Part shown: in pieces, positions 11,894-54,244 of the stretch
How positions within the stretch are numbered: position 1 is the first letter of the stretch
Layout: each line of letters opens with the position of its first letter
Assembly (NCBI GenBank): GCA_016930235.1
Contig: JAFGHI010000042.1
Span: 2,550-66,549 of the forward strand
DNA length: 64,000 bases
Direction: 5' to 3'
DNA from: Candidatus Omnitrophota bacterium
GTDB lineage: Bacteria > Omnitrophota > Omnitrophia > Omnitrophales > Aquincolibacteriaceae
The notes under the pieces: model-generated
The model's database searches: none
Seen by the model: only the letters and a program-made list of their open reading frames with translations
Told to the model about the DNA's origin: nothing
Translations under genes and position numbers: made by a program

Positions 11894-11989
11894 CCTAATT
11901 AGAATGAACAAGTTAGATTATAATAATTAGGTCCCTACCAGGATTATAAACAAGCCTATATATAGAAGAGAAATATTGCGGAGATATAA

Positions 11990-29493: not shown

Positions 29494-29530
29494 ATCGTGC
29501 AGCGCAGGTTGAGCCAGGAGGAGTAAAACA

Positions 29531-30547: not shown

Positions 30548-30581
30548 GATTCAAACGTTGCTTGATTAAGGATCACGGGGG

Positions 30582-30614
30582 AGCGCAGGCTTTAAAACCT
30601 GCGCTTCTTTTTTT
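30582..30614 (+). terminator. Rho-independent terminator
   Basis: agcgcagg-ctttaaaa-cctgcgct stem-loop followed by tcttttttt. Confidence 0.55.
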
Positions 30615-30640
30615 AAGGGCAGGATGATTCTACGAGGTTT

Positions 30641-31732
30641 ATGATGAAATACGTTGATGAATACCGGGACGGAAAATTGGCCGGACAGTTTGCGGATGCC
30701 ATCAAGCGGACCGTCACAAAACCCTGGACGGTGATGGAAGTTTGCGGTGGGCAGACGCATGCGATTGTCCGGTTTGGCTTGGATGAACTCCTGCCGTCTT
30801 CACTCAATCTGATTCACGGTCCCGGATGTCCCGTTTGCGTAACGCCGCTCGAATTGATTGATCAAGCCGTTGAAATTGCGTCACTCGAGAATGTGATTTT
30901 CTGTTCCTTCGGGGACATGCTGCGGGTACCGGGTTCACGCAGGGATCTCTTTTCCGTCAAGGCAAGCGGGGGAGATGTCCGTATCCTTTATTCGCCCTTG
31001 GATGCTTTAGCGATTGCATCTGAGAACCCGCGTAAAGAGGTTGTCTTCTTTGCGGTCGGATTTGAAACGACGGCGCCTGCCCACGCGATGGCGGTGAAAC
31101 AAGCTTGGGAGCGGGGCATTCGAAATTTCAGCATTCTTGTTTCACACGTTTTGGTCCCGCCTGCGATGGAGGCGATTCTCGCTTCTCCCCATAACCGTGT
31201 TCAGGGTTTTTTGGCGGCCGGACACGTTTGTACCGTTATGGGCTATACGGAATACGAACCTCTTGCTCGGAAGTATAAGGTCCCGATTGTGGTCACGGGT
31301 TTTGAGCCGAGCGATATCCTGCAGGGACTTTTCATGTGTGTCAAACAGTTGGAAGAAGGACGAACGGAAGTCGAAAATCAATATGCCCGTTCTGTCAAGC
31401 GTGAAGGCAATCGGAAGGCGCGGGAAACGGTGCGTGAAGTTTTTCAAGTGATTCCCCGAAAATGGCGGGGGATAGGAGAGATCCCCAAAAGCGGACTCGG
31501 CCTTCGGGAGAAATATGCGGTCATGGATGCGGCGAAGAGATTTAATTTGACGAGTTACGAAGCAGAAGAGTCCCCCGATTGCATCAGCGGATTGATTTTG
31601 CAGGGGCTGAAGAAACCTGACGAGTGTCCCGCTTTCGGAAAAAAATGCACGCCCGAACATCCTTTGGGGGCGACGATGGTTTCCTCCGAGGGTGCTTGCG
31701 CCGCTTATTACCGCTATCGGGGTTCACGATGA
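30641..31732 (+). CDS. hypD: [NiFe] hydrogenase maturation protein HypD
   Basis: MKYVDEYRD start, [19 protein letters not shown], and the C-terminal CxxH motif region. Confidence 0.9.
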
Positions 31733-31738
31733 ACCGCT

Positions 31739-31830
31739 GGCGCCCACCGCGTAGGTGGCCTTTTCAATCATTCCTAACGTTAGGTTTGTTCGAAATTCCC
31801 ACCTACGCGGTGGGCGAAGCGGTGGGCGAG
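31739..31830. repeat. Nested-palindrome intergenic repeat element, copy 1 (REP-like)
   Basis: cgcccaccgcgtaggtgg...ccacctacgcggtgggcg form an 18-bp inverted repeat around a loop containing the cctaacgttagg palindrome. The first 50 bp are identical to copy 2 at 51484-51533. Confidence 0.7.
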
Positions 31831-31856
31831 CCCCGTCCAACGGAGCGAGGAGCGAA

Positions 31857-32909
31857 ATGACAAAAAAAGAATTTAGCATGCAATGTCCGTTACCGGTTCG
31901 GGATTATCCGCGTGTGCTTTTGGCCCACGGCGGAGGCGGGAAGCTGATGCATCAGATGATCGAAAAGATTTTTGCCTCGAGTTTTCAAAATGAGATCCTC
32001 AAGAAGAGGCACGATAGCGCTATCTTGTCTTTACCCTCCTCAAAAATCGCGATGACAACGGATTCTTATGTGGTGCGGCCTCTTTTCTTCCCCGGCGGAG
32101 ATATCGGGAGCATGTCGGTTTATGGGACGGTCAATGATCTGGCGATGGCAGGCGCCAGGCCTAAATATTTGAGTGCGGGGTTTATCCTTGAAGAAGGTCT
32201 TGAGATGGAGACCTTGTGGAAAGTTGTCCAGTCAATGGCTGACGCGGCGAAGGAATGCGGGATTGAACTTGTGACCGGAGATACCAAGGTGGTCGACAAA
32301 GGCAAAGGCGATGGCATTTTTATCAATACGACAGGAATAGGTGTCTTCGAGCATTCCCAGGCGATTGAGCCGCAAAGCATCCGGACGGGAGATAAAATTA
32401 TCCTGAACGGAGACCTGGGACGTCACGGGATTGCCGTGATGATTGCCCGAGAGGGACTTTCCTTAGAAAGCCAGATCGAGAGTGACTCGGCGTCTTTAGC
32501 GGATCTTGTCATGAAATTGTTGGACCTGAAGGTTGAGATCCATTGTCTGCGGGACCTCACACGCGGCGGTCTTTCGAGTGCCTTGAATGAACTTGCCGAA
32601 ACGCGCGGTGTTCAAATCCGTGTCGAAGAAAAATCTATCCCGGTCCGCGAAGATGTTCACGGCGCTTGCGAGATTCTGGGATTGGACCCGCTTTATGTCG
32701 CGAATGAAGGCAGGTTCCTTGTTTTTGTCAAAGCAGGGGATGCCGATAAGGTTTTGAAGGTCATCAAATCACATCCTCTGGGTGAAGCCGCCTCCGTGAT
32801 CGGAGAAGTAACAAAAGAGAAAGATCCTCGAGTGACTTTGGTCAATCAAGTCGGGACAAGCCGGATCCTTGACATGCTCTCCGGAGAACAGCTCCCGCGC
32901 ATTTGTTGA
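31857..32909 (+). CDS. hypE: [NiFe] hydrogenase maturation protein HypE
   Basis: PurM/AIR-synthase-related fold ending in the conserved C-terminal PRIC, whose Cys is carbamoylated/cyanated. Start at ATG 31857. The longer ORF from 31755 would run through the repeat element. Confidence 0.85.
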
Positions 32910-33228
32910 TGTCGGTCGTCACCGTCGCCCGCAACACCAATGAAATTTTTCTCACCCTTTTTACTTGAGATATCACCTCTATCTATTTCCTAACTTTATA
33001 AGCAAAGGGACCATTTATAGGCAAATTATCCTATCCGTAACTTCTTTGAAATCAATTGGATATCGTTGGCTTTCAATAAATAACTATTTAGAGCTATTTG
33101 ACTATTTACAATATAAGTGTTAGCTTTCTAAGGATGTTTATTAAGTATGATTTTTGCATTTAGTTAAAGCTTCCGAAGAAATCGGAGTGGATCTTCAAAG
33201 CCGGTTCACGAGAAAGAGGTAAACTGCC

Positions 33229-34293
33229 ATGGAGAAAAAACGAAATGAAGAAAAAAGAAACAAGAAATTATTTATCGAGGATTTAGAAATTAGGAGAAGC
33301 ACATCGCCATTATTTTTTGCGGCTTTTACAGCTGATATCCAAAATGACGGTACTGAACCGACGAATCCGGAAAAACCTGTGGATGCGCAACCGGACAGCC
33401 AGTCAGCCCAAGAAATTCAGGTTCATCCCGTCACGAATTTACATGAGCCAAATACGATTGTTCCTGCTCGGGTAACTCCAGATGAAATGTGGACTTCGGA
33501 TTTCACTCGAATGGGCGAAGATATGGTTATTTCAACGATGGCAGTGGGCGAAGAAGGTGCTTCGGAGTATAATCCCATTCGATTTGTTTCATCTTCGTCC
33601 TCGCCTGCACCGGTGCCGACGCCCGCGCCTTCTCCGTCGCCTTCGATTGAAGCCAGCCCAACTCCGCATGCGAGTCCGTCGCCGGCTTACAATCCGGCAG
33701 GCATTTCTCCGGGGGAAACGGCGGGGAATGAAACAATGCCTGTTTCGAATGTGCACGGTCCAAGTCCTGAAGCCGCTTCCGAGCCGGTGCTGAGTCAAGA
33801 AATTCAGGTTAATTCCGTACCGGCCACGCCTGAAACGAGCACGGCTGTTCCAACGCGGGTTACTCCCGAAGAAACGTGGACATCGGATTTCACTCGAATG
33901 GGCGAAGAGATGGTTATTTCAACGATGATGGTCGGTGAAGAAGGTACTTCGGAGCTACACCCCATTCGATATTTTTCCAGTCCGTCTTCACCTGCGCCGG
34001 TGCCGACGCCTGCGCCTTCGCCGTCACCTTCGCTGGAAGCGAGTCCTGCTCCTCATCCAAGTCCTGAAGCCGCTTCCGAACCGGTGCCAAGTCAAGAGAT
34101 TCAGGTTAATCCCGTCGCGCCTGCGCCGGTGCCGACGCCTGCGCCTTCGCCGTCACCGAATCCAAGTCCTAGCCCCCTGTCATCGTCTGCTTATGTATCA
34201 CCAGGACAGTTGACGACCATGATGCTGGGTGAAGAAGCTGAGATTGAACTTACGACCATGATGTTAGGGGAAGAAGGCGAAACGGTCGTTTAA
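33229..34293 (+). CDS. Putative multi-core graspetide (microviridin-like) precursor peptide/protein with Pro/Ser-rich spacers
   Basis: Leader-like SPLFFAAF (nt 33307-33327) resembles the microviridin PFFARFL motif. Two near-identical roughly 120-aa modules contain WTSDFTRMGE(D/E)MVISTM(A/M)VGEEG. The C-terminus has tandem TTMMLGEEAEIEL and TTMMLGEEGETVV units. PAPVPTPAPSPSPS linkers are repeated three times at both DNA and protein level. Confidence 0.5.
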   Translation: MEKKRNEEKRNKKLFIEDLEIRRSTSPLFFAAFTADIQNDGTEPTNPEKPVDAQPDSQSAQEIQVHPVTNLHEPNTIVPARVTPDEMWTSDFTRMGEDMVISTMAVGEEGASEYNPIRFVSSSSSPAPVPTPAPSPSPSIEASPTPHASPSPAYNPAGISPGETAGNETMPVSNVHGPSPEAASEPVLSQEIQVNSVPATPETSTAVPTRVTPEETWTSDFTRMGEEMVISTMMVGEEGTSELHPIRYFSSPSSPAPVPTPAPSPSPSLEASPAPHPSPEAASEPVPSQEIQVNPVAPAPVPTPAPSPSPNPSPSPLSSSAYVSPGQLTTMMLGEEAEIELTTMMLGEEGETVV

Positions 34294-41739: not shown

Positions 41740-44700
41740 ATGAAAATTGACAATCTAACGAATCGAGCGACAAGTATCTTAACGATACTTGTTTTTTTAT
41801 TTTCGCAGGTGATAGTTTTTCCCACGCAGTCGATCGCTGCTGATCCCGTTCAGCAAATCCAGGATCGACAGGCGGAAGTTTCTTTGGAAGTCAAAGAAAC
41901 AGATCATTCCGATATTAATCCTGAAGAAAGATATCTCGATAGGAGTCTGGCCACTTTCTTTGAGCCTGTTGCCATTACAAAAGTAGCGGCGGTACGAACG
42001 CCGGCGTCACCTAAACCCCACGCATCGCCGGTACCTAATGCGTCTCCGAGCCCAACGAGTTATGCGTCACCAAGCCCAAGAAGTTCTTCGTCCCCGTCGC
42101 CGGTTCAAGTGCAAAGCGTTTTTAGCGGAGTCCTCGTAAAAGTTCCTGATGATCAGCCGAGTTTTCTGATGCGGTCGGTCTACCGTTTGCAAATTGACGC
42201 GAACCGTTCGATTTTGGTGGATGGCGCCGATGAAGTGGGTCAAAAATTACTGCCTCTCTATGAAGGCCAAGAAGTTGAATTACGCGGTGAATTTTTCGAA
42301 CTGGAAGGGATGCAGATTTTAAAGGTCACCCATATTAACGGGGAACCTGTCGAAGATTTACTCAATGAACTGCCTGATCCCACGAAGTATCCCACGGAAT
42401 CTGAGATGGAGGCGATACAGGGGCTTGGATCGGATATCGTTAAATTTGACAAAGCGACGGTTCGTGAGGACGGGATGAGGGAATATCAATTTTCTTCGTC
42501 ACCCAATGCGGCCGGAAGATTCCTTCAAATCGAAGTGACTTATGATCCTTGCGGCGGGATGCTTAAATGCCTGGCGCCGATCAGGATCAAGACCTTTCAA
42601 ATTGTTTTTGATCCGGGGCCGGTTTCGAGCGGAGAAATAATCCAGCTGCCGCCTCACGCGTTTCTTGATGTTTCTAAAGTTGAAGGTGTTATTCATCTTC
42701 CCGCGGGCGCGAAGTTCACGCTGGGGTTCCCCAGTGACAACTGGCTCCTATTTGATCTGGAGACGCAGATTACCGAACAGCCCGTCCGCGAAGTCGTTAT
42801 CCAGGATTTAGTCCAGACTTTTGGATTGGATGAATCCGGGATTCGATCGATGCTGGAACGGGGGGATATGAGTATCACGGTGGATCTAGAAAATCAAAAA
42901 GTTAAAGTCCATATGCCCGGTCATTTTAATTATACGCCCGTGGCGGCGGTGCCTTTCGGCGGGGTTTACCAGCCTAATCTTTTAGGTGATGAATACATCA
43001 GCTCTGAGATTACCTATCAATATGAAACGACGACGTCTGAGGATAAGATTCATCTTGTTGCGGCGGAGTTTCGACATAGCGGCAAGGTCTTCCGGTTAAG
43101 TTATGCGACCCCAGCGACCTCTCCGGCATCCGCAGTTCTCAATAACAAATTGTATTCAGTGACCGTTTCCGAAGAGGTTGAGACGCCATGTCTTATGGCG
43201 CCGTGTCCCGTTCAGGAGAAGTTGATTAAGCGGGTGCGATATATTTACTATGCGGATTCTGTGAACCCTGCTATGGCCGGGATCCAATATCTAGGTGAGA
43301 GCAGTGTGGCGTACCGGACGGTGACTTTTGTGGAACGCGAGACGGGTTTATTTGTGGATACCGTTGCGGATTTTGATTCCCAGGATAATTTGATCGCTGC
43401 GAATAAATTTTATTATACGGAGAATGCGGTTTGTGAGGCGATTTCGCCCTGCCACATCGAAAAGATTGAGCGCACGAAACCCCAAGGTGAGAGCAAAACC
43501 CAACGTGTGCTTGTTTCCGTCATTTCGGATTTTGAATATATCTTGTTGATAGGCGGGAAGTTTCCGATGGTGGCGACGATCACGCGCGCGGACGGTGTTT
43601 CTAAAGAGGTGAGATTCGGAAGCGCGGTTGAAGGAATTTTGGAGGAGGCCCTCGAATTCGAAAGCGAATATGATCCAGAACGCGCTGCATTAGAAGAATT
43701 TATTGCGGAATGGAGCCGGTTAAAAGCTGCCTACATGGATTACTTGCTGGAGCAGTTAGAGCCGATTCGGGATATGGGAGCGGCTATGACGGAGACAGAA
43801 CTCGAAGTTTTGCTTGAGGCATCGGATTTAAATGAAGCCCAAAGGGAGCGGTTGAGGCGGTTACATTTTGCTTTGACTTATATGCTTCATACGGTGGATT
43901 GGGTGTTTGATCAGTCATTAACACTTGTAGAACTGCCGGATTGGTATGCTGAATTTGCGGAGGCGGAAGGTTTTTCTTCCGTCGGGCTATATGTTTTCGG
44001 GGATATCGATACCTCCGGCATGTCCTTGGAGGAATTGCGTGAGACGGTCAATGAGATTAGGGATTATACGGCAGGCGAAGATTTGGAGTCATTCTTTGCC
44101 GGAATAGCAGCCGGGGTACCGGAATCCGCTGCGAGTATTATAGCGAGAACGAATCAGATCAACGCCGAGCTGGAAGCGCTGCGGGCGAATGAAAGAATTA
44201 GCCTTCTTAAAGAAAGGGCGCAGGCGCTCTTGGCGAGTAAGACGGAGGAAGTTAATAATTACATTCAGACGCTTCAAGAGCGTATTGATGTTCTCGAGGG
44301 GCTATTAAGCGAGGCGGATGAAGCCAATCTTCAGATGGAAGAATTGTATGCGCTTTTGATGGAGGAACGTGAGCGGCTTGTCAATTTATCAATGCAATAT
44401 CCGGAGGTTGATTTGAGTGATTTGGGCGGGAGCAATGAGATCATTCTCGAGGGGCTGAACGGATCGGGTGTCCAGGACCGGGATTATTACACGGCGTGGA
44501 CGATTTGGCGCGAGAACGTAGCTCGGCTTATCAGCCGTTATGAAGAGGGTATCGCAGTAAATCAAGAGGGCCTGGCTGAATTGGAAGCGCTTGCCAGTCA
44601 AATTTCGGCGTCTAATGATCCATCCGAAATCAAGCGCCTCTTGGATGAGATGATGGACAAGGCCGAAGACTTGCCGGTACCGATGGTTTTTCATCCCATC

Positions 44701-47700
44701 AATGTTTCCGAACCGGACGCCCAGATTGTCCTTAACCGCATGAACGGCATGCTGAACGCGATGCGGCGTAATTATCAAATTGCCAATCAAAGGATTGCCC
44801 AGGCCGACAGGCAGGCGCTCATCAGCTATCTTTCAGGAGTTGTCTCTGAACAGGCGGAGTTTATCCGTGAGGCCTTGGAAAAATATAAGGACGTCCAGGG
44901 GATTGAGATTGCGCTGAGTGCGGATGATTTGACGGCACTTATCGAGAAACTTGGTCTATCGGAAGAAGAGGCCGCGCGGCTTATGAATTTGTATAAGTAT
45001 TTTCTTGTGATGCTGGGTGTTCGTGCGGATGCGGTCCCATCGCCCTCATCTTCATCGAGCCCGAGTCCGGCTGCATATGTTTCAGCCAGCCCGCAGCCCT
45101 ATGCTTCGCCATCACCTTCTCCAGCCTCGTGGTCAATCAATAACCTCGTGACCGACGGAATCTTCCTGCCTCCGAATGCGAACCTTAATTCGAGGACCAT
45201 TGCCGCTCTGAAGGATTTTATTGCTTCCGAAGAGCTTTTAGGGTTTCTCCTGATGAAGAGGATCAATATACCGCCGGTCCAATCGTTATCTTTGGACGTT
45301 TTAAAGGACGCAGTTGAAAAAGTTAAGGAACTTATAGGCGATGACCCTGCCCAGTTTTTCGAGGAGGCCATGGAAGCTGTGGATCAGTACGTCGAAGGCG
45401 CCAAAGCCGATCTTGCCAAGATCAATACGGAATTTGAATCGCTTGAGGTTGATCCTGAACAGCAACAGTGGGAAACCAAGTGGACGGAGATTGAGGAGGC
45501 ACGTGTCGATCATATGACCGAGGTTTCCGAAGCCTTTGATGTTTATTTAAGGGAGTATCTTGATTCGATTGACGGCATGATTGATTCAGTACAAGGAATC
45601 TTGATAAATCTTCAAGACCAGGACTACACCGGTTTGGGTTTGGAGGATCTTGCCTTGTTTTTGAAATCGTACCAAAGCGCAGTGTCTTCTTTAGGTGTGG
45701 ATTTAAACTCTTTTCTCAGAAATGAAAGCATTCCAAACCTTCAGGAATTTTTCGAAGGTTTGAGGGAACAGTTCCTCAGTGATATGGATGCGGCTTTAGG
45801 CGAGGTTGATCAATTCATTAGCATATTCAGGGAAAGAGATCCAAGTCCCGAGGTCCTCGAAAGGATCGAGAGTCTTGAGAAGGTTAAGAAGTGGCTGCTC
45901 GAATTAAAGCCGGTTTATGTGAAGATGCTCGATGATTCCATCCAAATGGGGGTTGTTTTCGAAAATCAGCTGGGGAACCTGAATGGTATTTTGGGCCGCA
46001 TCGAAGAAGGGCGCCAGCAGTTGCTCCAAGAATTTGATGCTATTGATGAGCAATATGAAAGAGCGGTTCAAAATTTGGCGATGGAGCATTGCGGCCAAAC
46101 AGAGGACCCGGCTTCGGATGCGACGTGTGTATTCGAAAACCAGTATGCCTATTCTCAATGGAGGTATGGGATTTCGCCTGTGCGGTATGAGGAATGGAAA
46201 ACTTGCTGGAAGGATACCTGGGAAAGTGGCGTGACGAATTCCTCGGATATTGCAGCTGTATGTGGAGAATACGCAAAAGAGGAGGCGTGGGAAGCTGTCT
46301 ATGATGGGCCAGCAGGTTCAACGAGCGGATCGCTCGAACCGGGGCATTACCCTGCAGCAACCGATAGTTTTTTTGAAGTGCCTTATGCAGTCGCTTTGCG
46401 TGATTTGGAGATTGAGCGTGATCTTCAAAAGAAAAAAGCGAAAGAGGTTTTTTATGCGCTTGCCGAAGTTGAGATCATGAAATTAAAAGGGATCCGCGCT
46501 GCTGTTATAGGACAGATGGATGATTTATTGTCCATGCGTGTTGAGGTCATGAATGAATACCACCGGATTTGGCAGGAGGCAAGATCTCTGTCCGGCGGCA
46601 TTTTTAATTATCGCAATGAAGATGGTTTGGATTTTTATTCAAGATCAATAAGGGAAGTTTTAGGTGAAGGCACATGGTATTACAAAGTTTTTGATGACGA
46701 TGCAGTGTCGGGTAAAGTCAGAGGTGCGCTTAAGAACTCTTTGGATGCAGTTAAACGAGCAGCTGAAGAGGCCGGAGGAACTTTCTTTTCGGAATTGAGT
46801 CATGTCCAATTTGGCTTAAGGGATGCTTTAAAGAAGAAGGTTGAGATTGAATACCAATGGGCAGTGCGTGACGCACGCGAAGAGTATTATGGATCTTTCA
46901 AGGATGTTATGGCGATTGCTAAACCCATTGTTGAGGACTGGTACAACTATTGCCATGTGCCTACATCTTCAGATTGGCAGCAGCCCGCAGAATGTGGGGC
47001 CAATATGTTAGCGTCTTCTCAATATGGAATTGAACCCTCAAGAGAAGCATGGTTAAACCACCTTGTGTCGGCGAGTCGATTTCAGATGGTGCCAGTCGAA
47101 TATCAGGAGATATGCGACACGAATTTGAATGGTGAAGAATATTGTTACGAGACTGTAGCACGGTATGAAGCCATGGACCTCCAATCTCAGAATGAGGCCA
47201 TCTTAGATGAAGTTAGATGGTGGCATTCTACGGGATCCCCAGATGGTTATGAGGAATACAAAAATCTGTATGAAAAGTGGTATGCCGGTGTCGCTTCTTC
47301 TGATCTTTTTTATCGGCAACAAGTGGCAGAAGCTCTGTTGAAATTAGGGGAGTTTGATGAATTTGAAGCGAATATTTCTGAATTTTGCAGTCAAATTGGC
47401 GGTGGATATCAAGTCCTCGCATTTACGAATTGCGCGGATTTTGGCTACGGAGACGATTTTGTCGGCAGTCTTCAAGAAGAACGTGATCAAGCCTTGGCTC
47501 TAATTGATGAACAGTTTAGCGATCTTGGTATAGCGGTCTCAATTAATCCCAGTGACGCTCCTTTCATTATATTGGGCCCTAATCATTATATTGGTCATGC
47601 CGTGCTTGGCGGTGAGGAACTCGAGCGTCGTTGGGAAGAACTTTTTGGCGCTATGGATGAGGCATGGGATTCATTTGAAAAATCAAAGCAAGCTTCTGAT

Positions 47701-47736
47701 GAGAAATTTTATCAAATGTACGAAGGGCTGATCTAA
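41740..47736 (+). CDS. Giant (1998 aa) secreted protein with N-terminal signal peptide, Pro/Ser-rich linkers, long coiled-coil middle region and Cys/Trp-rich C-terminal domain; function unknown
   Basis: Uninterrupted 5997-nt ORF. Signal peptide MKIDNLTNRATSILTILVFLFSQVIVFPTQSIA|ADP. Linkers PASPKPHASPVPNASPSPTSYASPSP and PSPSSSSSPSPAAYVSASPQPYASPSPSP. Heptad-rich segments run from about 43.6 to 46.1 kb. Confidence 0.75.
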   Translation: MKIDNLTNRATSILTILVFLFSQVIVFPTQSIAADPVQQIQDRQAEVSLEVKETDHSDINPEERYLDRSLATFFEPVAITKVAAVRTPASPKPHASPVPNASPSPTSYASPSPRSSSSPSPVQVQSVFSGVLVKVPDDQPSFLMRSVYRLQIDANRSILVDGADEVGQKLLPLYEGQEVELRGEFFELEGMQILKVTHINGEPVEDLLNELPDPTKYPTESEMEAIQGLGSDIVKFDKATVREDGMREYQFSSSPNAAGRFLQIEVTYDPCGGMLKCLAPIRIKTFQIVFDPGPVSSGEIIQLPPHAFLDVSKVEGVIHLPAGAKFTLGFPSDNWLLFDLETQITEQPVREVVIQDLVQTFGLDESGIRSMLERGDMSITVDLENQKVKVHMPGHFNYTPVAAVPFGGVYQPNLLGDEYISSEITYQYETTTSEDKIHLVAAEFRHSGKVFRLSYATPATSPASAVLNNKLYSVTVSEEVETPCLMAPCPVQEKLIKRVRYIYYADSVNPAMAGIQYLGESSVAYRTVTFVERETGLFVDTVADFDSQDNLIAANKFYYTENAVCEAISPCHIEKIERTKPQGESKTQRVLVSVISDFEYILLIGGKFPMVATITRADGVSKEVRFGSAVEGILEEALEFESEYDPERAALEEFIAEWSRLKAAYMDYLLEQLEPIRDMGAAMTETELEVLLEASDLNEAQRERLRRLHFALTYMLHTVDWVFDQSLTLVELPDWYAEFAEAEGFSSVGLYVFGDIDTSGMSLEELRETVNEIRDYTAGEDLESFFAGIAAGVPESAASIIARTNQINAELEALRANERISLLKERAQALLASKTEEVNNYIQTLQERIDVLEGLLSEADEANLQMEELYALLMEERERLVNLSMQYPEVDLSDLGGSNEIILEGLNGSGVQDRDYYTAWTIWRENVARLISRYEEGIAVNQEGLAELEALASQISASNDPSEIKRLLDEMMDKAEDLPVPMVFHPINVSEPDAQIVLNRMNGMLNAMRRNYQIANQRIAQADRQALISYLSGVVSEQAEFIREALEKYKDVQGIEIALSADDLTALIEKLGLSEEEAARLMNLYKYFLVMLGVRADAVPSPSSSSSPSPAAYVSASPQPYASPSPSPASWSINNLVTDGIFLPPNANLNSRTIAALKDFIASEELLGFLLMKRINIPPVQSLSLDVLKDAVEKVKELIGDDPAQFFEEAMEAVDQYVEGAKADLAKINTEFESLEVDPEQQQWETKWTEIEEARVDHMTEVSEAFDVYLREYLDSIDGMIDSVQGILINLQDQDYTGLGLEDLALFLKSYQSAVSSLGVDLNSFLRNESIPNLQEFFEGLREQFLSDMDAALGEVDQFISIFRERDPSPEVLERIESLEKVKKWLLELKPVYVKMLDDSIQMGVVFENQLGNLNGILGRIEEGRQQLLQEFDAIDEQYERAVQNLAMEHCGQTEDPASDATCVFENQYAYSQWRYGISPVRYEEWKTCWKDTWESGVTNSSDIAAVCGEYAKEEAWEAVYDGPAGSTSGSLEPGHYPAATDSFFEVPYAVALRDLEIERDLQKKKAKEVFYALAEVEIMKLKGIRAAVIGQMDDLLSMRVEVMNEYHRIWQEARSLSGGIFNYRNEDGLDFYSRSIREVLGEGTWYYKVFDDDAVSGKVRGALKNSLDAVKRAAEEAGGTFFSELSHVQFGLRDALKKKVEIEYQWAVRDAREEYYGSFKDVMAIAKPIVEDWYNYCHVPTSSDWQQPAECGANMLASSQYGIEPSREAWLNHLVSASRFQMVPVEYQEICDTNLNGEEYCYETVARYEAMDLQSQNEAILDEVRWWHSTGSPDGYEEYKNLYEKWYAGVASSDLFYRQQVAEALLKLGEFDEFEANISEFCSQIGGGYQVLAFTNCADFGYGDDFVGSLQEERDQALALIDEQFSDLGIAVSINPSDAPFIILGPNHYIGHAVLGGEELERRWEELFGAMDEAWDSFEKSKQASDEKFYQMYEGLI

Positions 47737-47827
47737 AGCGAACGATAACGGAGCTATTAAGGCAGCGTTATTCGAATTAATTGAATTAACAATTTTGAAT
47801 AATTATTTTACAGATTCCAAACCCCAA

Positions 47828-48650
47828 CCCCCGGAATCGGTGTGAATTTGAGTTATAACCGATTCCGGGGTTCCCTCCTTTATTTAGACTACAGACCGCA
47901 GACTAACACCGAATCCCAATGATTCGGTGCGACTTCACTGATATTGATATATCAGTACCGCTCGTGGAAACCTTGATGGTTTCCTACGATCTTGCGGCAG
48001 AACCTGGACGGTTCTGTCCGAGTCGAGACCAGAGAACAGAAGCTAGATTCTGGATGCTGGATACTAGATAGAAGTGATGAATTTATAGTGCGTTTTATAA
48101 ATCCAACTTCGGGAATCTTACGCGGAGTCCTCACATTCTATATTTCCAAACGTTTGGAGATATGCACCCGTTCTGAATTGTCCCCACGTGGGGACAATTT
48201 ACGCAGACAAATTTGAGGTGATGCAAATCGCTTCGAATTTATTCGGTGCCGAATAAATCTGATAATTCAAATTGGTCCGGCGCCGGACCAATTGGCGTAA
48301 ATTGAATTTTCCCCGCGTGGGGAAAATTGGTGAGAACCGAGTTTTCCCACCGGTGGGAAAACTCACCAGGCTTGAATTCTGCCGACGTCGGCAGAATTTA
48401 ACGATTTTAAGTTTTCCGAACGTTCGGAAAACTCAGTGGTTATAACTAGCCGAAGCTGGATACTGGATGCTAGATGTTCGCCCCCTCACCCTGCCCTCTC
48501 CCCACTGGGGAGAGGGTTGGGGTGAGGGGTTGTTGTTTCAGTTTACCCGCCTGCGTGGCAGGCGGGGATGAGGGGGAAATATTCTTATAACACCCTCAAC
48601 CTAGCCCCTGCCCGACTGCATGGCAGGCGGGCTCTCCCTTTCAGGGAGAG
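47828..48650. repeat. Array of 18 or more distinct palindromic hairpin units (REP/BIME-like cluster) in a coding-free 1.2-kb region
   Basis: Perfect 24-bp palindromes include aattgtccccacgtggggacaatt (48177-48200), aattggtccggcgccggaccaatt (48270-48293), aattctgccgacgtcggcagaatt (48375-48398) and agttttccgaacgttcggaaaact (48410-48433). A 26-bp palindrome is gagttttcccaccggtgggaaaactc (48339-48364). Further hairpins lie at 47828-47870, 47907-47929, 47937-47956, 47966-47984, 47998-48016, 48140-48163, 48237-48258 and 48305-48328. GC-rich hairpins lie at 48482-48529, 48546-48566, 48611-48631 and 48632-48650. Confidence 0.8.
48043..48070. repeat. Direct repeat ctggatRctggatRctagat, copy 1, flanking the hairpin array
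   Basis: ctagattctggatgctggatactagata is repeated as ctagccgaagctggatactggatgctagatg at 48447-48477 and as a degenerate inverted copy at 48733-48775. Confidence 0.55.
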
Positions 48651-48913
48651 GGAAATACAACGGTTAATTATCAACGCCACTCGTTAATGGTGCATTATGT
48701 TTTTGACTTGCTGCCTGGAGCCTGCAGCTTTGATCTAGCTTCCAGCCTCTAGCCTCAGCTTTTATCCAGCATCTGATTTACGTGATCACTAATGCTATCT
48801 ATTGCTATATAGAGAATTTATTTTATAGCAGGTATTGAAAAATGATCGAACGGCGGGTATGGTTTAAGAAGATAGTTTAGGGAACGTTTTGATTCACTAA
48901 TTAGTTCATATGA

Positions 48914-49267
48914 ATGGAGATAGGACTTATGAAAAGAGATAGATTAGTCAGTTGGCTTCATTGTGTGGGTTTTGTTTTGTTTTTTGCCATTGCCCAATGG
49001 TTTTTTGTCCTGCCGGTGATCTCGGCAGTCAATCCCGCGGAAAGTGTCTACGCGACGAACCGTCTTTCGAAGGATAATACCGCCGGTATGAAAGACAACA
49101 TTTCGGTGCCTGTCGTGCAGCCGGTCGAGAAGCTTGAGATCGGCGGGTTCATTGCCGGTGAGGGAATGGGTTTTGGTGCAGTCTCCTATAAGGCGCAGGA
49201 TCTTGTCGGCGGGCATTTGGCCTCGAGCCGGAATCCCGAAGAAATCCTGGAACTTGCCGGAACATAA
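48914..49267 (+). CDS. Hypothetical small membrane-anchored protein
   Basis: One N-terminal TM helix and no recognisable family. The start is uncertain, with an alternative ATG at 48929. Confidence 0.3.
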   Translation: MEIGLMKRDRLVSWLHCVGFVLFFAIAQWFFVLPVISAVNPAESVYATNRLSKDNTAGMKDNISVPVVQPVEKLEIGGFIAGEGMGFGAVSYKAQDLVGGHLASSRNPEEILELAGT

Positions 49268-49319
49268 AAGGGATAAACCGTTCCCGTGTTTTGTGTTGAT
49301 CTAATTCTTCCATTAGGTT

Positions 49320-49580
49320 TTGCCGATAATCCATAACCGGATGAAAACTCTTATTTTCAACACAATCGGTTTTTTTTCGGCCCTGAGCTTGATCATGGTC
49401 CTGGTTTATTTCGGGCCGGACTTAATCCAAGGAGATCTCACTTCGATGAAGGATTTCCTCGAAAAATACCGGGGCATCGAACCCTTCGTCATATTTATTG
49501 TCCCTGTCGTTATCATTGTGGGGAGTGCCTGGATCTGGAAGATGGCCGTCCATTTAACCCGTAAGAACCCTTCATCCTAA
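49320..49580 (+). CDS. Hypothetical small two-TM membrane protein
   Basis: 86-aa ORF with two hydrophobic helices and no recognisable family. Confidence 0.3.
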   Translation: MPIIHNRMKTLIFNTIGFFSALSLIMVLVYFGPDLIQGDLTSMKDFLEKYRGIEPFVIFIVPVVIIVGSAWIWKMAVHLTRKNPSS

Positions 49581-49592
49581 AAGGAGCTAACC

Positions 49593-51455
49593 ATGGACTT
49601 ACTCAATGACAAGAACGCAAGCAAGGGGAAACTCAAGGCCTTGGAATTGGCCGAGGATTCACGCGAGGCAGAATGGAAGCTGCCGAGTTTTGCGGCGGAG
49701 CTTTTCCAAGGCCAGACGCGCTGGGAACTTATCTTACCTTTTCCGTCTCAGAGTGATGAGGATAAAAAGGAAGGCGATTTATTCCTGGCAAAACTCGAAA
49801 AGGTCCTCAAAAAAACTATCGATCCGAACGAAGTTGATCGAAGCGGGGATGTTCCTAAGGAGGCGCTTCAGGCCCTGGCGGAGATCGGGTGTTTTGCGAT
49901 TAAGATCCCGAAGGAATACGGCGGGCTGGGTTTATCGCAGGTCAATTACAACCGCGCGATCCATCTTACGGCGAGTCATTGCTCTTCGACGGCCGTGTAC
50001 CTTTCGGCGCATCAATCGATCGGGGTGCCGCAGCCTCTCATCAATTTTGGGACGGAGGAACAAAAGAAAAAATATTTTCCGCAATTTGCGAAGGGGAAGA
50101 TCTCGGCCTTTGCGTTGACGGAACCGGATGTGGGCAGTGATCCGGCCAAGATGAAGACGACGGCGGTGCCGATGGAGGGCGGGAAATATTATCTCTTAAA
50201 CGGTGAAAAGCTTTGGTGTACGAACGGGACGGTGGCGGAAATTATCGCGGTGATGGCTCAAACGCCCCCCAAGATTGTGCGGGGTAAAGAGCGGCAGCAA
50301 ATCACGGCCTTTATTGTTGAAAAGAGTATGCCGGGCGTTGAGGTGGCTCACCGCTGTACTTTTATGGGCCTTAAAGGGATCTCGAACGCGCTCATCCGGT
50401 TTAAAGACGTGAAGGTCCCGGCGGAGAATATCATTATCGGAGAAGGCAAGGGGCTGAAGCTGGCCCTTTCGACCTTGAATATCGGACGTTTGACGATGCC
50501 GGCGGCGGTCACAGCCGGTGCGAAATGGTGCATTCGTGTGATGCGCGATTGGGCGAATAACCGTGTGCAGTGGGGCGCGCCGGTGGGAAAGCACGAAGCG
50601 GTGGCCGCTAAGATTGCGGGGATGTCGTCCACGGTCTTTGCAATGGATGCGATTGCGAATATGGCGGCGGCGATGGTGGACCAGAAGAAAACCGATATTC
50701 GTTTGGAAGCGGCGCTCGCGAAACTCTTTTGTACGGAGGCCAGCTGGCGTATTGTCGACGGGGCGATGCAGGTCCGCGGCGGACGGGGCTATGAGACCGT
50801 GGAGTCTTTAAAAGGACGCGGCGATCAACCTTATGCGGTCGAACGCCTCATGCGCGATATGCGGATCAACACGATCATTGAAGGGACGAGCCAGATCATG
50901 AGGCTATTTATTGCGCGTGAGGCCATGGATATTCATGTCCGCCATATTATGCCGATCCTGGCGAAGCGCACAAAGTTTCTGGACCGGATCAAACTTGCGT
51001 TTCAGTCCTTCTTCTTTTATGCGTTTTGGTACCCTCAGCAATTCTTGTTTTTGACTTCGATGCCAAAAGGCGTGAAGATCCCGAAGCGGCTCGGGGGACA
51101 TATGAAATATGTTTCGAAGACCGCACATCGCTTGGCACGTAATCTCTTTCATGCCATGATGCTTTATCAACAAGGGCTTGAGAAGAAGCAGATGCTGATG
51201 ACGAGGCTTGTCAATATCGGGACCGATCTTTTTGCGATTGCCGTGAGTTGTTCGAAGGCCATCAAGATGGTGACGGAGAATCCGGGAGACAAAGGGCCCA
51301 TCGATGTCGCAGACCTTTTTTGCCGGCAGGCAAAGGGACGGATTGAAGGGCAATTCCGGGGTCTTTTCCATAACTTTGACGGATTTGCTTACAAGGTAGC
51401 GCAGGATACCTTGAAGGACAAACACCTTTGGCTCGAATCGGACCTTGTTTCGTAA
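49593..51455 (+). CDS. Acyl-CoA dehydrogenase family protein with C-terminal extension (FadE-like)
   Basis: ACAD N-terminal, middle and C-terminal domains (EIGCFAIKIPKEYGGLGL, FALTEPDVGSDP, catalytic region QVRGGRGYE), plus a roughly 200-aa C-terminal extension. Confidence 0.8.
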   Translation: MDLLNDKNASKGKLKALELAEDSREAEWKLPSFAAELFQGQTRWELILPFPSQSDEDKKEGDLFLAKLEKVLKKTIDPNEVDRSGDVPKEALQALAEIGCFAIKIPKEYGGLGLSQVNYNRAIHLTASHCSSTAVYLSAHQSIGVPQPLINFGTEEQKKKYFPQFAKGKISAFALTEPDVGSDPAKMKTTAVPMEGGKYYLLNGEKLWCTNGTVAEIIAVMAQTPPKIVRGKERQQITAFIVEKSMPGVEVAHRCTFMGLKGISNALIRFKDVKVPAENIIIGEGKGLKLALSTLNIGRLTMPAAVTAGAKWCIRVMRDWANNRVQWGAPVGKHEAVAAKIAGMSSTVFAMDAIANMAAAMVDQKKTDIRLEAALAKLFCTEASWRIVDGAMQVRGGRGYETVESLKGRGDQPYAVERLMRDMRINTIIEGTSQIMRLFIAREAMDIHVRHIMPILAKRTKFLDRIKLAFQSFFFYAFWYPQQFLFLTSMPKGVKIPKRLGGHMKYVSKTAHRLARNLFHAMMLYQQGLEKKQMLMTRLVNIGTDLFAIAVSCSKAIKMVTENPGDKGPIDVADLFCRQAKGRIEGQFRGLFHNFDGFAYKVAQDTLKDKHLWLESDLVS

Positions 51456-51480
51456 GCACCGACGCCTCCGGCGTTTGACC

Positions 51481-51565
51481 GCTAGCGCCCACCGCGTAGG
51501 TGGCCTTTTCAATCATTCCTAACGTTAGGTTTGTCGGAAAAGGCCACCTACGCGGTGGGCGCTAG
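51481..51565. repeat. Nested-palindrome intergenic repeat element, copy 2 (perfect 29-bp arms)
   Basis: gctagcgcccaccgcgtaggtggcctttt (51481-51509) pairs perfectly with aaaaggccacctacgcggtgggcgctagc (51537-51565). The loop contains cctaacgttagg. It lies immediately 3' of the acyl-CoA dehydrogenase gene. Confidence 0.8.
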
Positions 51566-51686
51566 CGGCGGCGGCCAGTGGCGGTCGAGGGCTGGACGGT
51601 ACCCAACCCGCGTGGTATGATACTCCGAAGTCAATAATCCAAGATTAATTCCCTTTCGAGTGGAGGCGCTTTTTAGCGATCAAACG

Positions 51687-52247
51687 ATGACAGACGAGAA
51701 TATCCAGATTGAAACCGAATTTACGCCGAACCCCAAATCACTGAAATTCAATGCCAACAGAGTGATCATCGAGAAGGGGACTTTCTCTTATTCGAAATCG
51801 GCGGAGGCCGAGAAATCGATTTTGGCCAAGAAGTTGTTCCAAGTGAAAGGTGTTGAAGGGGTCTTGATCGGCAAAGATTTTGTGACCATTACGCGAGGCG
51901 CGAATGTCGGGACGTGGGCGGCCATTATCCCGGCGGTCAGCGATACCTTGAAGGATCACCTGTTATCGGGAGAGCCGGCCGTGTTCTCGGAAGCTTCGAA
52001 TCAAGCGAGCGGCAGCGAATCGGAAGTAGAAAAAAGGATCCAACAGTTTTTGGATGAAAAAATAAGGCCGGCTTTGGCCCGTGATGGCGGGGATGTGACT
52101 TTCGAGAGTTACAAAGACGGAGTCGTCGCGCTTCAGTTGCGGGGGGCGTGTTCTCATTGTCCCAGTGCGACCATGACGCTCAAAATGGGGGTTGAAAGAC
52201 TTTTACGCGAAGCCATTCCCGAAGTCAAAGAGGTCGTGCAGGTTTAA
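51687..52247 (+). CDS. nfu: Fe-S cluster scaffold/carrier protein Nfu (Nfu_N plus NifU C-terminal domain)
   Basis: Nfu_N region IETEFTPNPKSLKF...VTITR and NifU-like GACSHCPSATMT (CxxC). Start at ATG 51687; the ORF track's 51660 is an upstream in-frame Met. Confidence 0.8.
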   Translation: MTDENIQIETEFTPNPKSLKFNANRVIIEKGTFSYSKSAEAEKSILAKKLFQVKGVEGVLIGKDFVTITRGANVGTWAAIIPAVSDTLKDHLLSGEPAVFSEASNQASGSESEVEKRIQQFLDEKIRPALARDGGDVTFESYKDGVVALQLRGACSHCPSATMTLKMGVERLLREAIPEVKEVVQV

Positions 52248-52258
52248 AAATCCAAGAA

Positions 52259-52762
52259 ATGTTCTTTTTTTCAAGTATGAGATCTAAACGCATAAGAGTT
52301 TTGAAGCGGGTTCCGATCGGGATCATTTTTTTGGGGCTTAGCCTGAATCTTTTCATATTGCCTCATCTTGTTACGGCACAAACCGCACCTGTCCTTTATC
52401 CGGGATTTGCTCCGATCGAAGAAAGCAAGGCTTACCTCAAATTTTTGGAGAGCCCCAAGTCCGATTACGCCAAGATTCTTTTTTTGATCGACAGGTTTGG
52501 AGAAGCCGATGCCGAAATCATCTATGAGGGATATGTTTTTTCGACGACTTTTGCCGCGCATTTTGCCAGACAATTTTTGTCACGGCAATACCGGGGGGAA
52601 ACACCGGAAAAGTGGATTATGCGGTGGTGCAATACCTCGGTGATCAAAGGGGAGCTCATCTGGGTCCGGCTCCCCAATCAGAAATATAAATTATCACGTG
52701 AAGTCCTGCTGGAAGAAGTCAAAGTCCTTGAAGAGTGCCTCAAAGGGAAACCGGTTTCCTGA
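52259..52762 (+). CDS. Hypothetical secreted protein (signal peptide)
   Basis: N-terminal RSKRIRVLKRVPIGIIFLGLSLNLFILPHLVTAQT signal-like sequence. The protein is otherwise unassigned, with weak resemblance to DUF5329-type proteins. Confidence 0.45.
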   Translation: MFFFSSMRSKRIRVLKRVPIGIIFLGLSLNLFILPHLVTAQTAPVLYPGFAPIEESKAYLKFLESPKSDYAKILFLIDRFGEADAEIIYEGYVFSTTFAAHFARQFLSRQYRGETPEKWIMRWCNTSVIKGELIWVRLPNQKYKLSREVLLEEVKVLEECLKGKPVS

Positions 52763-52829
52763 TTTTGCCGCTCAAGATCTTTTTTTAATCAAACCGTTGA
52801 CGGGTCCTGCCGATATTTGAAGAGATAGC

Positions 52830-53057
52830 ATGCTGGCATTTATCACGGAGGCAACTATGGCGACGAAGAAGAAACTGAAGAAACTTTCATCGGGGAAAGT
52901 GAGTATCTTTAAGATCGAGAATCGACGGGGGTATGCGGCGGTTTGCATGAAAAACCTGACAGAAGGGCGAAGCCCGGTTCAGGCCTTCTATCGAATGGTG
53001 AAAGCAGTCAAACGATCAGGATTTGAGTTGAGCGGGAGAGTCCCGAAGGCCCGCTAG
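52830..53057 (+). CDS. Hypothetical small basic protein
   Basis: 75-aa Lys-rich ORF with a possible start at ATG 52857. No family recognised. Confidence 0.3.
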   Translation: MLAFITEATMATKKKLKKLSSGKVSIFKIENRRGYAAVCMKNLTEGRSPVQAFYRMVKAVKRSGFELSGRVPKAR

Positions 53058-53083
53058 AGACCCGTTACGCTTGCCACCGCGGC

Positions 53084-53140
53084 GGCCTTTTCTCTACTCT
53101 TTAAGAGGAGTTAGGTCAAAAGGCCGTTGCTTGGCGGGTG
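53084..53140. repeat. Degenerate third copy of the nested-palindrome element
   Basis: gccaccgcggcggcctttt ... aaaaggccgttgcttggcgggtggtg retains the ggcctttt/aaaaggcc arms and the ccaccgcg/gcgggtgg remnants. Confidence 0.4.
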
Positions 53141-53260
53141 GTGAGCGGTCATTTCACCCCAAAAACACCTAGGATATCTTCGATGCACCTTCATTGACAG
53201 AGGACGAAGGGTGCTGTAAAATTCGACAAAATCAAAGGTTACGGAGATTACGGAACTCTT

Positions 53261-54244
53261 ATGTCATCTCGAGTTTTAAGTGGTACACGCCCCACAGGTT
53301 GCCTGCATCTGGGGAATTTGATGGGAGCGCTTGAAAATTTCAAAAAACTGCAAGGAGAAGATTCCTTTTTCATGATTGCCGATCTTCATGCCTTGACCAC
53401 GGAATATGAGGAAAAGGCTTCGTTAAGGGAACGCGTCATGGAAGTTGTGATCGATTACCTGGCAAGCGGATTGGACCCGGATCAATGTACGATCTTCGTC
53501 CAAAGCGAGATTTCCGCTCACGCCGAAATGGCGCTTCTGTTATCGATGATAACACCGTTGGGTTGGCTTGAGCGGAACCCTACTTACAAAGATCAATTGC
53601 GCGAACTTCAAGGCCGTGAGCTTCATACGCACGGCTTTCTGGGGTATCCGGTCCTTCAAACGGCCGATATTGTGCTCTACAAGGCCGAAAAGGTTCCGGT
53701 GGGGGAAGATCAACTGCCTCACTTGGAATTAGCGCGTGAAATCGTCAGACGTTTTCATTATTTGTACAAAGAGGAAATTTTCCCCGAGCCGCAAGCGGTC
53801 TTGACTCAGGTTCCCCGGATTCCGGGTTTGGACGGAAGGAAGATGAGCAAGAGTTATGATAATTGTATTTATTTGTCAGACAGTGCTGAGGTCGTCAAGA
53901 AGAAAGCGAAGACCATGATTACGGATCCTGCCCGTAAGAAGCGGGAGGATAAAGGACATCCGGAAGTTTGTCCGGTTTTTCTGTTCCATCAGCTGTTTAA
54001 TGCGTCCGAAAAAGAGAAGGTGGCGCAGGAGTGCCGGGAAGCGATGCGCGGATGCGTTGACTGTAAGATGGAAATGATCGAAAAATTGAATGATTTTCTT
54101 GAACCGATTCGCAAGAGGCGTGAACAATGGATGAAGAAAAAAGATCAAGTGGAGAAAATCCTGAACCACGGCCGCCGGAAAGCGAGCCAAGTCGCCAACC
54201 AGACACTTCTGGAAGCGATGCGGGCGATGGGACTCCGGGATTAG
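53261..54244 (+). CDS. trpS: Tryptophan--tRNA ligase
   Basis: TGCLHLGNLMGA (HIGH-type) and KMSKS motifs, at TrpS length. Confidence 0.9.
   Translation: MSSRVLSGTRPTGCLHLGNLMGALENFKKLQGEDSFFMIADLHALTTEYEEKASLRERVMEVVIDYLASGLDPDQCTIFVQSEISAHAEMALLLSMITPLGWLERNPTYKDQLRELQGRELHTHGFLGYPVLQTADIVLYKAEKVPVGEDQLPHLELAREIVRRFHYLYKEEIFPEPQAVLTQVPRIPGLDGRKMSKSYDNCIYLSDSAEVVKKKAKTMITDPARKKREDKGHPEVCPVFLFHQLFNASEKEKVAQECREAMRGCVDCKMEMIEKLNDFLEPIRKRREQWMKKKDQVEKILNHGRRKASQVANQTLLEAMRAMGLRD

Follow-up and report, generated by a model that had tools for sequence, protein, structure and literature searches.

Repetitive extragenic palindromic (REP) sequences carry as their tag a conserved tetranucleotide, usually GTAG or CGTC, which stays unpaired at the palindrome's 5' foot or at most ~2 nt from it (PMC3733652, PMC8266576). 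Their homodimers, known across phyla, enclose structured spacers of 20-100 bp and are found after unidirectionally transcribed open reading frames (ORFs) (PMC3733652). REP doublets forming hairpins (REPINs) consist of two inverted REPs, each an imperfect palindrome, and of a spacer that is itself organised as a hairpin, and their 89 bp form an almost perfect hairpin (PMC3337134). The 89-bp GI REPIN of Pseudomonas fluorescens SBW25 is mobilised by RAYTs, the tyrosine transposases associated with REPs (PMC3337134, PMC3116915). The cognate RAYT (a Y1 HUH transposase) is a single-copy gene of the same genome, as a rule with REPs on its flanks, and REP insertion leaves no target-site duplication. 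An element of comparable build is described here from an uncultivated Candidatus Omnitrophota genome, in a stretch of 64,000 nt of contig JAFGHI010000042.1 (hereafter the window), where it lies once between the hydrogenase-maturation genes hypD and hypE (copy 1) and once after the gene for an acyl-CoA dehydrogenase (ACAD; copy 2). It is best read as a non-autonomous palindromic mobile repeat of the REPIN or miniature inverted-repeat transposable element (MITE) kind, a reading held with fair rather than high confidence; the element would work like a REPIN, and probably is one or a close cousin.

The element comprises two inverted 32-nt arms, each with a 5-bp mini-hairpin of its own, and a hairpin-forming spacer of 26 nt, ~91-92 nt in all (Table 1). 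It has the palindromic unit typical of a REP, which is short (20-50 nt), extragenic and capable of a stem-loop, and the paired inverted arms with a hairpin-forming spacer typical of a REPIN. In copy 2 the arms are 100% complementary over 32 bp in an exact scan; an earlier reading made from the sequence alone (the sequence-only reading) had described a perfect inverted repeat of 29 bp here, correct in its perfection and its place but too short in its arms. An inverted-repeat finder reports arms of 45 nt at 89% complementarity. The small ccacc-gcgta-ggtgg hairpin with cctttt that the same reading had seen in each arm is indeed there: the core mini-hairpins CCACC-GCGTA-GGTGG lie at 51489-51503 in the left arm, where CCTTTTC follows, and at 51544-51558 in the right arm, where AAAAGG precedes. 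Their 5-bp stem has a folding energy of -7.5 kcal/mol (as RNA), while an alternative fold of the left arm, an imperfect hairpin of ~9 pairs including G-U pairs, reaches -12.2 kcal/mol. The motif announced for the loop is likewise present, as the perfect palindrome CCTAACGTTAGG at 51518-51529; in the predicted fold it forms, together with flanking CA..TG pairs, a hairpin within the spacer. The 111-nt stretch 51470-51580 folds as RNA at -88.8 kcal/mol (z = -12.0) on the plus strand and at -81.7 kcal/mol (z = -13.2) on the minus strand, and the copy 2 element alone reaches -49.4 kcal/mol with DNA parameters.

Copy 1, placed 19.7 kb away between the hypD stop codon (31730-31732) and the hypE ATG (31857), where the sequence-only reading had put it, matches copy 2 at 93% identity across 84 nt, and the 50 consecutive identical bases reported by that reading are found as 31740-31789 = 51485-51534. 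The similarity stops where the palindrome ends, so that the same unit stands in two unrelated contexts. Its core hairpins (31744-31758 and 31799-31813) and its central palindrome (31773-31784) are preserved, and its arms are perfect for 18 bp only (31741-31758 / 31799-31816). The right arm carries an AAATTCCC variant and a 1-nt indel near its outer end, with five clustered differences (TTCGAAATTCCC in copy 1 vs TCGGAAAAGGCC in copy 2), and the resulting stem mismatches are uncompensated in the left arm. The repeat is not a product of chance, since a 25-mer of the arm has 3 matches within the window vs 0.00 expected from shuffles, and the fold z-scores of the repeat copies are -12 and -7.5. An assembler artefact is excluded as well, because an independent assembly from the Logan collection reproduces both copy junctions exactly. 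The ORFs that enter the element (31755-32909, with a GTG start, and on the minus strand 50904-51512 and 51262-51516) were dismissed as ORF-finder artefacts; the recorded start of hypE is 31857.

Like REPINs, the element has two inverted REP-like units with their own short palindromes, a hairpin spacer, a size of ~90 nt and a near-perfect long hairpin; it is extragenic and mostly placed after genes, its subfamilies differ in stem perfection, and it shows no clear target-site duplication. With the GTAG- or CGTC-tagged REP dimers, such as the E. coli BIMEs and the Stenotrophomonas SMAGs, it shares the inverted homodimer of short stem-loops (PMC3733652, PMC8266576), as well as a spacer in the 20-100 bp range with complementary ends and a position downstream of unidirectionally transcribed ORFs. 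Cores with 5-bp stems are also known among REPs, namely in Thauera and Marinomonas Mb (PMC3733652, PMC8266576). In contrast to the SBW25 REPIN, to which its sequence is unrelated, the element lacks an unpaired GTAG at the core's 5' end, and the spacer is identical between copies 1 and 2 whereas the SBW25 spacers all differ. Of its copies, 2 are seen and at least 2 more are inferred; tens to hundreds per genome are the norm for REPs and REPINs. Unlike the tagged dimers, it has the defining terminal tag absent or misplaced, and its arms reach well beyond the core hairpin, with 32 nt of perfect complementarity; perfect REP homodimers of such length are prone to removal by SbcCD (PMC3733652, PMC8266576). 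Omnitrophota are not among the phyla surveyed in the REP papers cited here.

Bacterial MITEs with long inverted repeats are represented by the Correia elements of Neisseria, which measure ~100-150 nt, have inverted repeats of ~26 bp or more, and insert close to gene ends, where their co-transcribed hairpins affect both the processing of mRNA and how genes nearby are expressed. These elements additionally have a TA target duplication, functional promoter and integration host factor (IHF) sites, and hundreds of copies. The Omnitrophota element resembles them in size, in its long inverted repeats, in its presumably co-transcribed hairpin and in its position at gene ends.

Further copies are suggested by the way in which short-read assembly breaks at the element. 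Logan assemblies (k = 31) of run SRR13394437 contain the same organism, and four of their contigs match the window at 100%: 30118-31761, 31794-34020, 48638-51503 and 51544-53867. A contig built of 31-mers enters a repeat exactly 30 nt and then stops, and the only other exact repeat of at least 31 nt in the window (33991-34028 = 34120-34157, 38 nt) serves as control for this rule: contig L105 ends at 34020, that is, 33991 + 29. From the 31-mer repeats within the window alone, breaks would be expected at 31769, 31760, 51508 and 51539. Those observed lie instead at 31761, 31794, 51503 and 51544, which implies other loci sharing at least 31 nt with different flanks; the shared stretches required start at 31732, end at 31823, start at 51474 and end at 51573. 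For copy 1, whose unit ends were inferred from the breaks at 31761 and 31794, the shared limits coincide with the ends of the palindrome (plus one A). This palindrome spans 31733-31823 (Table 1), in place of the 31739-31830 of the sequence-only reading. For copy 2, the shared stretch overruns the palindrome by 4-5 nt on each side (TTTG / CGGCG), for which there is no confident explanation. Since the shared 30-mers of copy 1 include its specific G variant and its AAATTCCC/CGAAGCGGT variant, the imperfect subtype has itself been propagated, as is predicted by copying and not by private decay. By this reasoning from contig ends, at least one further copy of each subtype, perfect-stem and imperfect-stem, would exist outside the window.

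The state of the hypD-hypE junction is consistent with an insertion. The gap between both genes is 124 nt here, 91-92 nt of which are the element, vs 6 nt and 54 nt in two relatives (L112 and L113, respectively). Copy 1 directly abuts the hypD stop codon (TG|A), while the ribosome-binding region of hypE, GGAGCGAGGAG, lies outside the element. Beyond the conserved AAYYRYR motif, the HypD tail reads GSR* here vs 7 and 15 residues in the two relatives, and is the shortest of the three. When 31732-31823 is removed in silico, hypD reads on and its TGA overlaps the ATG of hypE as ATGA, giving a predicted empty site ...CACGATG|GGGCGAGCCCC...; other excision boundaries do not yield this overlap. It follows that the current hypD stop is a hybrid of a host TG and the element's first A. 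An ATGA overlap is the classic coupled arrangement of two genes. Given that chance would restore the hypD ORF about one time in five, this restoration is supportive and not decisive.

Comparison with relatives points in the same direction, within the limit that the closest of them share only ~70% (ACAD) and 78% (HypD) protein identity, for which reason no strict empty site is available. Five loci with an ACAD orthologue, L107-L111, were sampled over ~21 kb or less each; as L107/L108 and L110/L111 are duplicates, they represent three Omnitrophota genomes, and none of these loci holds a copy of the element. Other REP-type families do occur in these loci (a doublet in L110, a hairpin in L109 and palindromes in L107, described below), and this was counted in favour of the mobile repeat. 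The sequences around the two insertion points are alike, GATG^GGGCG for copy 1 and TTTG^CGGCG for copy 2, and this likeness, together with the CGGCG at 51469-51473, could reflect either a preferred target or, at copy 2, a duplication of 5 bp.

Several observations weigh against a REPIN-like mobile repeat. No unpaired GTAG or CGTC stands at the palindrome's 5' foot. Every arm does have a GTAG, which spans the loop and the 3' stem of the core (CCACCGC-GTAG-GTGG); 3 nt upstream of the core, copy 2 has the tetranucleotide CTAG in both arms and copy 1 has CTGG in the left arm, the right arm of copy 1 having a different, indel-bearing sequence at this site. No RAYT was seen among the 48 window ORFs scanned against Pfam. 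Only two copies are certain, seen in 64 kb, and the additional ones could belong to a different genome within this metagenome; two further contig ends lie inside conserved coding motifs, such as the KMSKS of trpS. Excision would restore the hypD ORF by chance with a probability of ~0.2. The flanks are mixed, with no direct repeat around copy 1 under any boundary tried and a possible 5-bp direct repeat around copy 2 (CGGCG at 51469-51473 and 51569-51573) that depends on taking the unit as 51474-51568, which leaves a target-site duplication unclear. Searches for relatives of the element were negative: there were 0 matches of the 22-mer arm and of the two-arm pattern in JGI metagenome contigs, 0 matches in IMG/VR, none by blastn among plasmids and phages, and none at E <= 10 for its six-frame peptides among 5.8 billion proteins, the latter search being meant to catch spurious ORFs over other copies.

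Against genome contigs, the GC-rich 18-mer CGCCCACCGCGTAGGTGG gave more than 100 single chance matches in high-GC genomes, and among the matches listed none extended beyond 18-22 nt. The literature on Omnitrophica and palindromic repeats yielded nothing relevant. The Rfam scan proposed by the sequence-only reading returned 0 matches at gathering threshold in the whole window; the best match below threshold, mir-493 (40.7 bits vs a threshold of 68), is a generic hairpin match. As far as the collections searched go, the element is a new sequence family, of a kind that is well known.

One rival explanation is that of a host-evolved cis-acting RNA hairpin, either a terminator or attenuator or a stabiliser of mRNA 3' ends, duplicated once or a few times and kept for its function without being mobile. 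This explanation, considered unlikely, can draw on the extremely stable RNA folds and on the fact that copies 1 and 2 and a third hairpin discussed below all begin 0-22 nt after stop codons. Copy 2 and the third hairpin, moreover, lie just upstream of the sigma70-like promoter matches of the next genes (51593-51621 and 53194-53222). An intrinsic terminator is a GC-rich stem-loop with a U-rich tract directly behind it on the transcribed strand. As in such terminators, there is a GC-rich hairpin just downstream of genes, and an inner 5-bp hairpin is followed by CCTTTTC; this weak inner hairpin is, however, the only part flagged as terminator-like. The full 32-bp stem, far longer than that of a typical terminator, has no T-run on either strand, its 3' flanks being CGGCGGCC / GGGCGAGC on the plus strand and TCAAACGCC / TTCATCGTG on the minus strand, and copy 1 lies within an operon-like pair whose genes are 6 or 54 nt apart in relatives. 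Neither would termination require identical spacers and arms at unrelated loci, nor does it fit with the propagation of an imperfect subtype, the uncompensated stem mismatches, or the lack of an equivalent in L107-L111. The bidirectional terminator offered by the sequence-only reading is thus not the primary nature of the element, given the missing U/T-run on both strands and the place of copy 1 inside a tightly packed hypD-hypE unit. Non-canonical hairpins might nevertheless serve in this genome: because canonical hairpin-plus-T-run terminators are not enriched in the window (32 vs 25.4 +/- 4.6 in shuffles), the element may have a partial termination effect, though this would leave the sequence identity of the loci unaccounted for. 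A role as a small RNA gene or riboregulator, acting in trans or in cis, is very improbable. The fold is very stable on both strands and G-U pairs would permit the alternative left-arm fold in RNA only, but no Rfam family is reached at gathering threshold and the matches below it are generic long hairpins such as miRNA precursors, no promoter match precedes the element itself, and there is neither covariation (the copy 1 mismatches being uncompensated) nor conservation in relatives. The small structured RNA of the sequence-only reading accordingly finds no support, in contrast to its REP-like element, which is supported by the REPIN architecture, the near-identical copies in unrelated contexts, the absence at orthologous junctions and the evidence for further copies.

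Closer to the mobile repeat favoured here stands the classical MITE, which derives by deletion from an insertion sequence with a DDE transposase and would have moved via 32-bp terminal inverted repeats and left a target-site duplication. The long perfect terminal repeats, a length near the lower limit of MITEs, the similarity of both copies' flanks at the insertion point (TG^SGGCG) and the possible CGGCG repeat around copy 2 would fit, but copy 1 has no flanking direct repeat at any boundary tried, arms with internal hairpins make up ~70% of the unit, as is more typical of REP doublets, and neither a parent insertion sequence nor a DDE transposase is found within the window; a MITE in this strict sense is regarded as quite unlikely. 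An integron-type attC site, with copy 2 and the third hairpin flanking a cassette block of nifU and a hypothetical gene, is barely credible. Such a site has outer R''/R' core sites (RYYYAAC ... GTTRRRY), an imperfect stem with extrahelical bases, and cassette arrays or IntI associated with it. The region between ACAD and trpS does vary, with nifU here and NIR_SIR or aldolase genes in relatives, and GTTAGGT fits the GTTRRRY core motif. However, the AAC/GTT motifs stand side by side in the middle of the element and not at its outer ends, a placement that effectively refutes the idea by anatomy; the stem is perfect and lacks extrahelical bases, no integrase is encoded within the window, the 161/167-aa gene, like the small ORF upstream of trpS, keeps its neighbourhood in relatives, so that neither is a cassette, and copy 1 lies inside the hyp cluster. 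A CRISPR was discarded too, there being only inverted pairs and no array.

As regards the mechanism by which a REPIN-like repeat would spread, none of the 48 scanned ORFs encodes a transposase, RAYT or integrase, and within the window the element is therefore non-autonomous. Its single-stranded DNA would fold into a long hairpin, and it would most likely be moved in trans by an enzyme whose gene lies at another place in the genome. As such an enzyme, an HUH tyrosine transposase of the RAYT or IS200-IS605 type acting on the folded single strand is the first candidate, and a DDE transposase that would use the terminal inverted repeats is the second. Mobilisation in trans by either enzyme is inferred.

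Once inserted, the element would be co-transcribed with the upstream gene into a very stable RNA hairpin, which should shield the upstream mRNA from 3'-exonucleases and may partly attenuate read-through. In E. coli, REPs stabilise upstream mRNA, and those lying closer than 16 nt to a stop codon reduce translation of the upstream gene (PMC12306157). This distance is found for copy 1 (0-1 nt) and for the third hairpin (8 nt), and is exceeded by copy 2 (22 nt). At hypD, where the element stands 0-1 nt from the stop codon, it may hinder ribosome termination and uncouple hypD from hypE; the insertion apparently took place in the last codons and would have created a new stop, host TG plus element A, with loss of a 12-residue non-conserved tail. 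These side effects at the RNA level are deduced from what is established for REPs in E. coli.

Nearly all that is known of the uncultivated Omnitrophota comes from metagenome-assembled genomes (MAGs), and the repeat family explains the fragmentation of this organism's short-read assembly at these sites, making it a marker for strain typing and for assessing MAG contiguity. It also offers a concrete case of a small palindromic insertion that apparently truncates a gene tail and uncouples two hydrogenase-maturation genes. In other respects it is an ordinary member of an element class described for 40 years, and raises no new question unless its mobilising enzyme is unusual. A bolder proposal, which is speculative and rather improbable, would be an active Omnitrophota family of palindromic transposons without the canonical GTAG tag, moved by a divergent HUH or other enzyme, with a TG^SGGCG-like target at gene ends, and remodelling operons through stop codons and broken translational coupling.

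Table 1. Positions of the palindromic repeat, its parts and the adjoining genes in the 64,000-nt window
Feature	Position	Strand	Remark
Copy 2, palindromic unit	51478..51568	.	91 nt: ACCGCTAGCGCCCACCGCGTAGGTGGCCTTTTC - 26-nt spacer - GAAAAGGCCACCTACGCGGTGGGCGCTAGCGG
Left arm of copy 2 (REP-like)	51479..51510	+	32 nt
Spacer of copy 2	51511..51536	+	26 nt, asymmetric, sets the orientation of the element
Right arm of copy 2	51537..51568	-	perfect reverse complement of the left arm
Stretch around copy 2 recurring elsewhere in the sample	51474..51573	.	Logan contigs end at 51503 and start at 51544
Copy 1 (subtype 1)	31732..31823	.	92-nt unit; palindrome 31733-31823
Third hairpin ("copy 3")	53066..53149	+	84 nt, imperfect; membership not demonstrated
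hypD (context)	30641..31732	+	stop codon formed at the junction with the element
hypE (context)	31857..32909	+	ATG 33 nt past copy 1

The third hairpin is the site that led the sequence-only reading to count the element three times, a count of which two copies can be upheld. It is a genuine hairpin (-46.9 kcal/mol, z = -4.8, on the plus strand only), separated by 8 nt from the stop codon of the conserved 66-aa ORF in front of it (52857-53057) and ending 45 nt before the TTGACA-17-TAAAAT promoter match (53194-53222) of trpS. With copies 1 and 2 it has in common only CCACCGC..GGCCTTTTC, GTTAGGT and AAAAGGCC. BLAST finds no similarity between this hairpin and either copy; aligned locally, they share at best a gapped motif of 22 nt, CCACCGC---GGNGGCCTTTTC (shuffle p ~0.001-0.003), whose score of 24 barely exceeds the 21 reached by the best unrelated windows. 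With a covariance model made from copies 1 and 2, the third hairpin scores 18.7 bits (E ~0.08) and an unrelated hairpin at 48481-48530 a near-equal 18.4 bits, so that neither BLAST nor the model supports its membership in the family. It is unique at k=31, as contig L114 runs through it unbroken. The gap upstream of trpS is 203 nt here vs 62 nt in the relative L109, the extra sequence including the hairpin, and the L109 gap carries the same promoter-like TTGACA..TAAGAT. The third hairpin is possibly related to copies 1 and 2 or merely convergent. A T-box or leader of trpS was rejected, since the promoter match lies downstream of the hairpin and Rfam finds nothing.

The window has a G+C content of 47.8%, and its HypD and ACAD correspond at 100% identity to MBN1688627.1 and MBN1688640.1 of a Candidatus Omnitrophota MAG. 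Its gene content includes hydrogenase, hyp, pyruvate:ferredoxin oxidoreductase (PFOR), cytochrome bd, trpS, scpAB and aromatic amino-acid genes. All copies are intergenic. That each follows a plus-strand gene, as the sequence-only reading had stressed, is true yet uninformative, because ~50/53 window ORFs lie on that strand. Copy 2 starts 22 nt past the ACAD stop codon (51453-51455), and 25 nt downstream of it, before nifU, lies the sigma70-like promoter match TGGACG-17-TATGAT. Between the ACAD stop and copy 2, at 51458-51477, there is a small hairpin (ACGCC-TCC-GGCGT, then TTG), perhaps the weak terminator present originally, or else the target of the insertion.

The hyp cluster is split in the window (23240-32909), with hypF-hypC at 23240-25886, PFOR at 25846-29493, a dihydroorotate dehydrogenase-like gene at 29531-30547, and then hypD, the element and hypE, while L112 and L113 have a contiguous hypF-hypC-hypD-hypE. 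The block between ACAD and trpS (51660-53057) contains nifU here, and a NIR_SIR-type sulfite/nitrite reductase gene with or without an aldolase-SDR (short-chain dehydrogenase/reductase) gene in L107, L109 and L110. A 161/167-aa hypothetical protein (41-49% identical) remains adjacent to trpS in relatives, and the small ORF of 60-66 aa at 52857-53057, with no Pfam match, keeps its place beside trpS and is 75% identical to its L109 copy.

Upstream of ACAD, the ORF 41740-47736 encodes 1998 aa with no Pfam domain, and giant ORFs (3271 and 14332 residues) occupy the equivalent place in relatives. The ORF 33229-34293 (354 aa, no Pfam match) has two internal copies of 289 nt at 76% identity, with Pro/Ala/Ser-rich units of 38 nt that are identical at 33991 and 34120, and these repeats break short-read assembly.

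Besides the element, other palindromes are present in the window and in related genomes. The 1.2-kb non-coding gap after the 1998-aa ORF (47737-48913) holds at least 10 distinct short perfect palindromes, among them several of the form AATT-N8|N8'-AATT (48176-48199, 48270-48293 and 48305-48328), GAGTTTTCCCACC|GGTGGGAAAACTC (48339-48364), GAATTCTGCCGAC|GTCGGCAGAATT and AGTTTTCCGAAC|GTTCGGAAAACT, as well as GC-rich nested hairpins at 48482-48529, 48546-48566 and ~48610-48660. These palindromes are probably what the sequence-only reading counted as its first repeat family. One of them is also repeated elsewhere, since 48638, the start of Logan contig L001, falls 30 nt within it. L107, from a related Omnitrophota MAG, has 24-nt perfect palindromes of the same format as the AATT-palindromes at 48.2-48.4 kb, AATTCGTCGGCC|GGCCGACGAATT, AATTGGTCGGCC|GGCCGACCAATT and AATTCATCGGCG|GGCCGATGAATT, at 18121-18144, 18976-18999 and 19706-19729 among toxin-antitoxin genes. 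Their shared format hints at a lineage-wide conserved family of palindromes or of sites bound by a protein.

Directly 3' of its ACAD orthologue, at 11950-12014, L110 carries a different nested doublet of the form GTAG...CTAC, GTAGGGGCGAAC..GTTCGCCC ... GGGCCGAC..GTCGGCCCCTAC, a textbook GTAG-headed REP head-to-head dimer, and the motif GTAGGGGC/GCCCCTAC occurs 6 times in the 21 kb of this locus. In L109, a CGTC-headed hairpin of 66 nt (12838-12903), CGTCATCCTGAGG...CCTCAGGATGACG, lies within a called 696-aa aldolase/SDR fusion gene, and may be an intragenic REP-type insertion.

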